Positions 2,025 to 2,897 of a DNA stretch of 64,000 nt are shown here, one piece after another. The first letter of the stretch is position 1. Each line of letters begins with the position of its first letter. A model generated the notes under the pieces. That model ran no database searches, was not told the DNA's origin, and saw only the letters and a program-made list of their open reading frames with translations. Origin of the DNA: Escherichia coli (GTDB taxonomy: Bacteria; Pseudomonadota; Gammaproteobacteria; Enterobacterales; Enterobacteriaceae); the NCBI RefSeq assembly GCF_030013595.1, contig NZ_CP122768.1; one strand, given 5' to 3'. The position numbers and the translations under genes were made by a program.

Positions 2025-2897
2025 TTACCAGCGACCGGACGCGCCGCCACCGCCAGAAGAACCGCCCCCGCCGCTAAATCCGCCGCCACTTGAGCCGCCA
2101 CCGGAACCGCTGTTGTCTGAATGATAACTTCTACCAGATGCTTTTTTCTGAAGTACACATAAACAGGTAAAGACCATAATGGTGGTGAAAGTAAAAAAGA
2201 AGAAAAATACAGCAATGGAAAAAGTTTTATCGGAGAACAGGAATAAATCTAAAAGATAGATTGCTGAAATACAGACACTGCTTTTACATGCGCGACAAAA
2301 ATTACTGCCTTCATGAAAAAACCAGAAAGGGAAGAACATCACTGCAAATACCCAAAAAATAGCAAAGTAATAATGATCACTGGAAGACGCTGATTCAATT
2401 TCTGAAGGATTAGCCGGATATTGGTGTTGTGAAGTGAGTTGGTTATTCAAAGCGATTATAGCTAACTCTAATCCCTTAGCTAATTATTGTTGTTTAAATG
2501 CGGGTATCATGTTGCTACGGATGATATCTCCAGCCAGAGCATCGGTTACCTTTTCTTCCAGCCCATAACCTACCTGGATGCGGACAGTACGATCCGACCA
2601 GGCAACAATGATCAGTATCCCATCATTGCGTTTGGCATCTCCTAAACGCCAATTGTTAAAAACCCTTGTAGCATATTGTTCAATTGTCTCGTCTTTGGTT
2701 GTGGGAATAATTAATACAGCAATTTGTACTTGGGTATTATTGAAAATAGATTCTAACTTCCGCGTCAGTTCTTTCTTTTCTTGTGAGTTTAAGCTACTCG
2801 TAAGATCCGTAACTTGTTGCTGTAATTGTGGGACAATAGTTGGTTGGGCTGCAACAAAGGAACACACGAATGTGAATATTAGTATGAAATAGCGCAT
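2025..2897 (-). pseudogene. ygcG: TPM-domain membrane protein YgcG, interrupted by an in-frame TAA (complement of 2484..2486)
   Basis: ORFs 2484..2942 and 2025..2450 are in the same frame on the minus strand separated only by one TAA; N-part has signal peptide [18 protein letters not shown] and TPM-like domain, C-part has TM segments and a Gly/Ser-rich tail; joined length 290 codons. Confidence 0.5.

Follow-up and report, generated by a model that had tools for sequence, protein, structure and literature searches.

A premature ochre stop in ygcG of pig-associated Escherichia coli, probably marking a young nonsense pseudogene

The ygcG locus and its neighbours

The window analysed in this study is a stretch of 64,000 nucleotides from Escherichia coli (contig NZ_CP122768.1, assembly GCF_030013595.1). 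A reading frame on its minus strand at positions 2025-2897 is bordered by pyrG and eno on one side and by queE, a CRISPR array and ygcE on the other, and these flanks identify it as the ygcG locus of E. coli. Translated, the frame runs through 291 codons in a single phase and is interrupted by a stop just once before its end, at codon 138. All 873 nt (290 codon positions followed by the terminal TAA) are colinear with the intact alleles of 290 amino acids, with 95.9-99.3% identity over the gene. The codons around the internal stop read CAA CAA TAA TTA GCT, with the TAA occupying positions 2486..2484 as read on the minus strand. In the list of open reading frames the gene appears as a 5' ORF that ends at 2484 and a 3' ORF at 2025-2450, and the frame is identical for both. 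The preliminary description of this DNA had proposed that the two halves lie in one frame and are separated only by a TAA at complement 2484..2486, which our translation confirms, and the joined length of 290 codons that it gave for K-12 YgcG agrees with the 290 amino acids of the intact orthologues.

The 5' ORF (2487..2897, minus strand), which is still translatable, consists of 137 codons for the signal peptide and for a TPM domain shortened by some 15 residues at its C-terminus. The 3' remainder (2025..2483, minus strand), presumably no longer translated, spans the last TPM helix and, after a linker, three hydrophobic segments and the Gly/Ser-rich tail, whose last residues are GRW. Further stops or frameshifts are absent from the part of the frame past codon 138.

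In K-12, YgcG (b2778; WP_001268460.1, a TPM domain-containing or 'YgcG family' protein) is encoded at the same eno-queE locus with the same length and frame, and as one ORF, so that the division into two ORFs, which the preliminary description had considered for K-12 ygcG itself, does not exist there. The K-12 gene and the window gene differ at 36 of 873 nucleotides (95.9% identity) without gaps and encode the same architecture, in which a signal peptide and a TPM domain are followed by hydrophobic segments and by a Gly-rich tail with GRW at its end. At the protein level the differences amount to the TAA in place of AAA at codon 138 and 18 amino-acid substitutions of a kind typical of an allele from another phylogroup. 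The literature on E. coli ygcG yielded passing mentions and no dedicated functional study. A YgcG-family protein of Cupriavidus necator has been described in the literature to toggle between G253W and W253G in adaptive laboratory evolution, in one case for halotolerance.

Downstream of ygcG, a 13-bp GC-rich hairpin with A- and T-run flanks lies between the convergent eno and ygcG genes (1985..2014). It was missed by a consensus terminator scan and was seen on direct folding (-20.3 kcal/mol, z = -6.8), and the folding result makes it a likely bidirectional terminator. With ygcG as the last gene before a strong terminator, neighbouring genes would be unaffected by the stop and polarity would not be an issue.

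Upstream of ygcG, a yqcG-like small ORF (2911..3052, minus strand) is frameshifted by one extra A (GTCAAAAAC as against GTCAAAAC in K-12) and is annotated by PGAP as 'hypothetical protein, frameshifted'. An ORF of 35 codons survives from the ATG at 3018 (2911-3018, minus strand), and this 35-aa ORF is called by the gene callers. In the K-12 derivative XL10-Gold, a yqcG of 46 codons precedes ygcG. The annotation assigns YqcG to the cell-envelope stress response. The divergent intergenic region between yqcG-ygcG and queE (3053..3190) is, by its position, the presumed promoter region of the operon. For K-12, a sigma-S ChIP-seq peak has been reported between queE and ygcG (PMC4447067). Another study found PhoP to bind upstream of queE and the deletion of yqcG to increase queE expression in an mgrB mutant (PMC4974570).

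In roughly one E. coli in five, the ygcG site is occupied by a full lemA together with one to three TPM genes. The lemA-TPM operons of strains 503829 and Nissle 1917, both with a full lemA, occupy the same chromosomal site as ygcG of the window. In its start and promoter region yqcG shows homology to lemA, the ATG at window position 3018 aligns exactly with the ATG of lemA, and YqcG residues 14-41 or thereabouts resemble the N-terminus of LemA, which suggests from alignment that yqcG is the 5' remnant of a deleted lemA. A LemA gene (PF04011) directly upstream of the TPM gene, the hallmark of the lemA-TPM operon, is missing from the window, where this position holds a lemA-like 5' remnant of the kind that spans 35 to 46 codons. 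Like K-12, the window thus retains a lemA-like stretch of about 30 codons (yqcG) and one TPM gene, with the difference that both are broken here. The eno-queE interval as a whole is highly polymorphic in E. coli, the Nissle type having lemA and three TPM genes (one of them partial) and the K-12 type having yqcG and ygcG only.

Origin, spread and age of the stop codon

The preliminary description had suggested aligning other ygcG genes of E. coli for the ancestral state of the interrupted codon, and this state was found to be AAA (Lys). Codon 138 is AAA in all of the intact alleles examined, namely those of XL10-Gold, 3150, TUM14771, 7/2 and Nissle, each of which is 873 nt and 290 aa long and aligns with the window ungapped. 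The premature ochre stop (2484..2486, minus strand) is accounted for by one A>T transversion at window position 2486, which is gene position 412, in the middle of a run of five A (CAACAAAAATTA to CAACAATAATTA). A sense codon in every intact relative with zero indels is the pattern of a nonsense pseudogene.

An exact 61-mer centred on the TAA was found in 19 of 5,426 complete RefSeq E. coli genomes. The TAA is also carried, together with an additional missense change (N129K), by the UK isolates HCP5S3_I2 and LCP30S3_I5, which brings the carriers to 21 of the 5,426. All 21 carriers were isolated from pig or wild boar, with origins in Denmark, France, the UK and elsewhere. W13-16 and P15-25 are labelled O139:H1, and the remaining carriers are mostly porcine "ETEC" by strain name. 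O139:H1 is a serotype of edema-disease STEC that is overwhelmingly ST1 (PMC11965690). Beyond the complete genomes, gene calls on 114 contigs of NCBI, ENA and Logan give exactly the 137-aa product of the window; these contigs are spread over 182 blocks of the collection and include Logan assemblies of raw runs. The window itself adds to this count. Its segment 3500-9500 has no 100% match among the complete RefSeq E. coli genomes, and its closest relatives are three draft assemblies (GCA_021649045.1, GCA_006230245.1 and GCA_008326365.1), which differ from it at 1-3 positions over some 3-4 kb. The window genome therefore lies outside the complete-genome collection and represents one more independent assembly with the TAA.

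A sequencing or assembly error, in which the real codon is AAA and ygcG is intact, has in its favour that the substitution sits in a short A-run, a context that is error-prone on some platforms. Against it, the difference is a substitution and not an indel, and the stop recurs in the 21 complete genomes from several countries, on the 114 contigs including assemblies made from raw runs, and in the window as an additional genome distinct from all the other carriers. One carrier, K_EC180, was moreover assembled from PacBio plus Illumina reads (PMC8071739). An identical allele across independent assemblies excludes such an error for practical purposes, and we consider its chance to be vanishingly small. 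As judged from these assemblies, the TAA is shown to be real, derived and shared among a set of pig and wild-boar E. coli, including O139:H1 strains. Of the two options that had been offered for the stop, the nonsense pseudogene holds and the sequencing error falls, and the pseudogene is not a feature of "this strain", as had been supposed, since the mutation is lineage-wide in pig-associated strains. The three carrier genomes whose annotation was inspected (CFSAN018748, W13-16 and HCP5S3_I2) all have the gene as a pseudogene with 'internal stop' in PGAP, the label in CFSAN018748 being 'TPM domain-containing protein, pseudo, internal stop' at the same coordinates; the ygcG pseudogene is hence already annotated, and it is a case of ordinary gene decay.

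Over positions 2025-3190 the window is identical to the 21 carriers, save for N129K in the two UK isolates. In CFSAN018748 and W13-16 (O139:H1), this 100% identity covers both the TAA and the frameshifted yqcG-like ORF. The frameshift in yqcG also occurs in relatives with an intact ygcG, in TUM14771 and 7/2 according to PGAP annotation and in 3150 according to alignment, and it is therefore older than the TAA.

The nearest intact allele, that of TUM14771, differs at five other sites, all located shortly downstream of the stop. Relaxed constraint or decay after the stop was considered for this clustering and was not borne out by it, as three of the five sites are in the K-12 state and the patch at 481-528, including I167, is present in the intact allele of strain 7/2. 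Downstream of the stop, Q196E is the only missense change private to the TAA lineage, which indicates that the pseudogene is young and that the allele is a mosaic of ordinary polymorphisms. The changes that bear on constraint after the stop (the private Q196E, and N129K in a sub-lineage, with I167 also occurring in an intact allele) are too few to judge, and the 3' part may, as far as these substitutions tell, still be under constraint or be too young to have diverged.

The same TAA was also observed on scaffold_308 of the ENA metagenome ERZ28563587, where the downstream haplotype is TUM14771-like (S161, S167, Q196) and the background is about 2.5% divergent from the window. This scaffold could have arisen by recombination, by recurrent mutation or as a chimeric assembly of mixed strains.

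Predicted product and translation beyond the stop

The preliminary description had placed the stop between a TPM half and a membrane half of the protein, and this position, though nearly right, needs correction. In the intact protein, the Pfam domain PF04536 (TPM_phosphatase) extends over residues 29-151 and matches profile positions 1-123 of 125 with 123.8 bits, so the stop at codon 138 falls inside the TPM domain. The 137-residue product of the window still matches profile positions 1-108 of 125 with 117.8 bits (E=3.8e-34) against a gathering cut-off of 22.1 bits, and by profile score it belongs to the TPM family. The 3' remainder alone gave no Pfam match. A hydropathy scan located the hydrophobic segments past the stop at residues 176-196, 203-221 and 224-251, ahead of the Gly/Ser-rich tail that ends in GRW.

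The TPM fold consists of four strands flanked by four helices, and TPM domains have been associated with the maintenance of membrane complexes as well as with phosphatase or nucleotidase activity, with no consensus function (bioRxiv 10.1101/2024.10.28.620569). The solved homologues 5ANP, 7TBR and 2KW7 align through residues 150-186 approximately, and the alignment past residue 150 implies that the folded domain extends beyond the stop. The best of these, BA41 of Bizionia argentinensis (5ANP; E=1e-23), resembles YgcG in its overall layout, with a hydrophobic segment after the TPM domain and a W at the end of the Gly-rich tail that follows. BA41 is a distant flavobacterial orthologue that informs on the extent of the domain past the stop and on nothing directly of the function of E. 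coli YgcG. A single-sequence AlphaFold (AF2) model of the intact YgcG, of low confidence (mean pLDDT 51) and used for the secondary-structure pattern only, places the stop in a loop between a helix at 117-135 and the last helix at 139-161, and its pattern agrees, at that low confidence, with the four strands and four helices of TPM domains. Taken from profile, homologues and model, the truncation is predicted to cost the protein the last TPM helix besides three predicted membrane helices and the glycine-rich tail. The window product would accordingly fall short of a complete TPM domain (profile 1-125), and the YgcG architecture, in which signal peptide, TPM domain, membrane segment or segments and Gly-rich tail are joined in one polypeptide, is split by the TAA.

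Among the natural stops of E. coli UAA is the most frequent, and termination is most efficient where a U follows it; a tRNA that suppressed ochre codons would do broad harm. The stop in ygcG has exactly this context, TAA-T. Full-length YgcG could in principle still be produced by a suppressor tRNA or by programmed recoding, as the frame is intact downstream of the TAA. Against this stand the strong termination context and the restriction of the stop to 21 of 5,426 genomes, the other alleles that were read having AAA, which is unlike the conservation expected of programmed recoding sites. A suppressor tRNA was discarded as a candidate on the ARAGORN result, with no tRNA or tmRNA genes across the whole 64-kb window; the check for suppressor tRNA genes suggested in the preliminary description is thereby covered in part, to the extent that there is no local suppressor. 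A known RNA or recoding element was likewise dismissed, as no Rfam families reached the gathering thresholds in window 1800-5400, so that neither a leaky context nor a stimulatory RNA is seen at the site. We give readthrough next to no chance.

Re-initiation was the third candidate to be set aside, as none of the in-frame starts past the stop (TTG150, GTG186, ATG187 and ATG241) has a Shine-Dalgarno-like motif within the 20 nt before it. In addition, the 3' ORF was left uncalled by gene callers in the carrier loci examined, and the protein collection has no exact match to it. Rescue of ygcG expression is unlikely on these sequence features, and the most likely outcome would be a loss of function.

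We consequently interpret ygcG of the window as a young, lineage-specific nonsense pseudogene, with a probability of roughly 93%. According to the proposed course of events, one A>T change in the A5 run would have turned Lys138 (AAA) into an ochre stop, and translation would end at codon 138. This would leave at most a fragment of 137 residues with a signal peptide, a TPM domain without its last helix, no membrane anchor and no glycine-rich tail, which would probably be misfolded or degraded in the periplasm, and the 152 codons of the 3' part would go untranslated. The function lost would be that of an envelope-associated TPM-domain protein presumed to be co-transcribed with YqcG, the small envelope-stress protein.

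Repeated decay of the eno-queE interval and other features of the window

Other lesions of ygcG were found in several lineages. One is a -1 deletion within the A5 run that also holds the TAA change (CAACAAAATTAG); it is present on 31 contigs and, among the 5,426 complete genomes, in strain D10 alone, which came from a dog. Another -1 frameshift, found on 20 contigs, terminates at the same out-of-frame TAG. A later frameshift occurs on seven contigs, the Shigella flexneri copy is doubly frameshifted, and in strain 503829 an IS1 element adjoins a truncated TPM gene. The eno-queE locus is prone to decay, with independent lesions of ygcG in the other lineages.

The near-coincidence of the end-points, with three independent E. 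coli alleles terminating at residues 137-138, bears on whether the truncated product might be a functional one. In a functional gene fission, ygcG would have been divided into a soluble periplasmic TPM protein and a separately translated small membrane protein. The 5' ORF does retain its start, its signal peptide and 108 of the 125 TPM profile positions, the 3' part has acquired no additional stops or frameshifts, and the shared end-points might be taken in the same sense. The end-points have nevertheless a mutational explanation, in that the A5 site is followed just after by a hidden out-of-frame TAG that catches -1 frameshifts from upstream, and they need no selective one. Fission would also have to accommodate the removal of the last helix of the four-strand, four-helix fold (bioRxiv 10.1101/2024.10.28.620569), four potential restart codons that all lack a Shine-Dalgarno sequence, and a 3' ORF that is neither called in the examined carrier loci nor represented exactly among the collected proteins. 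We therefore hold a functional fission to be very unlikely.

A pathoadaptive loss, in which the inactivation of ygcG was selected in the porcine lineage and did not spread by drift, would fit an allele that is fixed over a geographically wide and host-restricted set of strains, and it would fit the several independent inactivations of ygcG, Shigella included. Hitch-hiking alone, however, predicts fixation in a clonal lineage, and truncated alleles other than the TAA are seldom seen, a single complete genome having the -1 A deletion. Some 3,900 of the 5,426 complete genomes have a full-length match to the locus, every non-carrier genome inspected has ygcG without a pseudogene flag, and no phenotype of ygcG is known. 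Adaptive loss is accordingly an unlikely explanation. A more specific version, drawn from the three independent alleles that end within one codon of each other, would have truncation near residue 137 repeatedly selected in host-adapted E. coli and Shigella, through an un-anchored fragment or through loss of the protein, and aiding adaptation to pigs of strains related to O139:H1; this we regard as decidedly improbable.

With ordinary decay as the preferred reading, the correct label for the gene is a pseudogene with an internal stop, and neither a pair of hypothetical ORFs nor a sequencing error. As a single-nucleotide marker, the TAA cleanly identifies a pig-associated lineage of E. coli to which O139:H1 strains belong. 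The carriers would be natural ygcG-null strains in which yqcG is frameshifted as well, and they may help to assign a function to the YgcG/TPM envelope protein. Beyond the correct annotation, the importance of the finding is slight.

The remaining features of the window were compared with CFSAN018748, relative to which the window keeps its ygbI-ygbN cluster intact, has another CRISPR array and is missing both IS200C and the cas operon. The type I-E CRISPR array at 4201-4749 consists of nine repeats with a 61-nt period, has one tandemly duplicated spacer (4384-4444 being the same as 4445-4505), and is accompanied by a degenerate repeat copy at about 5215-5245. An ORF for a DDE_Tnp_1 transposase of 426 aa (21532-22812, minus strand) lies between cysH/hok and iap, at the position where the CRISPR1 array and the complete cas3-cas2 operon are found in CFSAN018748 (21994-31005 of its locus). 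The strain of the window would hence be without type I-E cas genes and its remaining CRISPR array an orphan. In CFSAN018748, cas3 is frameshifted. The IS200C element of CFSAN018748 lies between ygcU and ygcS (10530-11237 of its locus) and is absent from the window at the corresponding site (about 10770). Finally, the ygbI-ygbN / otnK-ltnD cluster for tetronate and threonate utilisation (36991-43069), which is present in most E. coli and missing from CFSAN018748, has a 100% match in two pig isolates from the UK.
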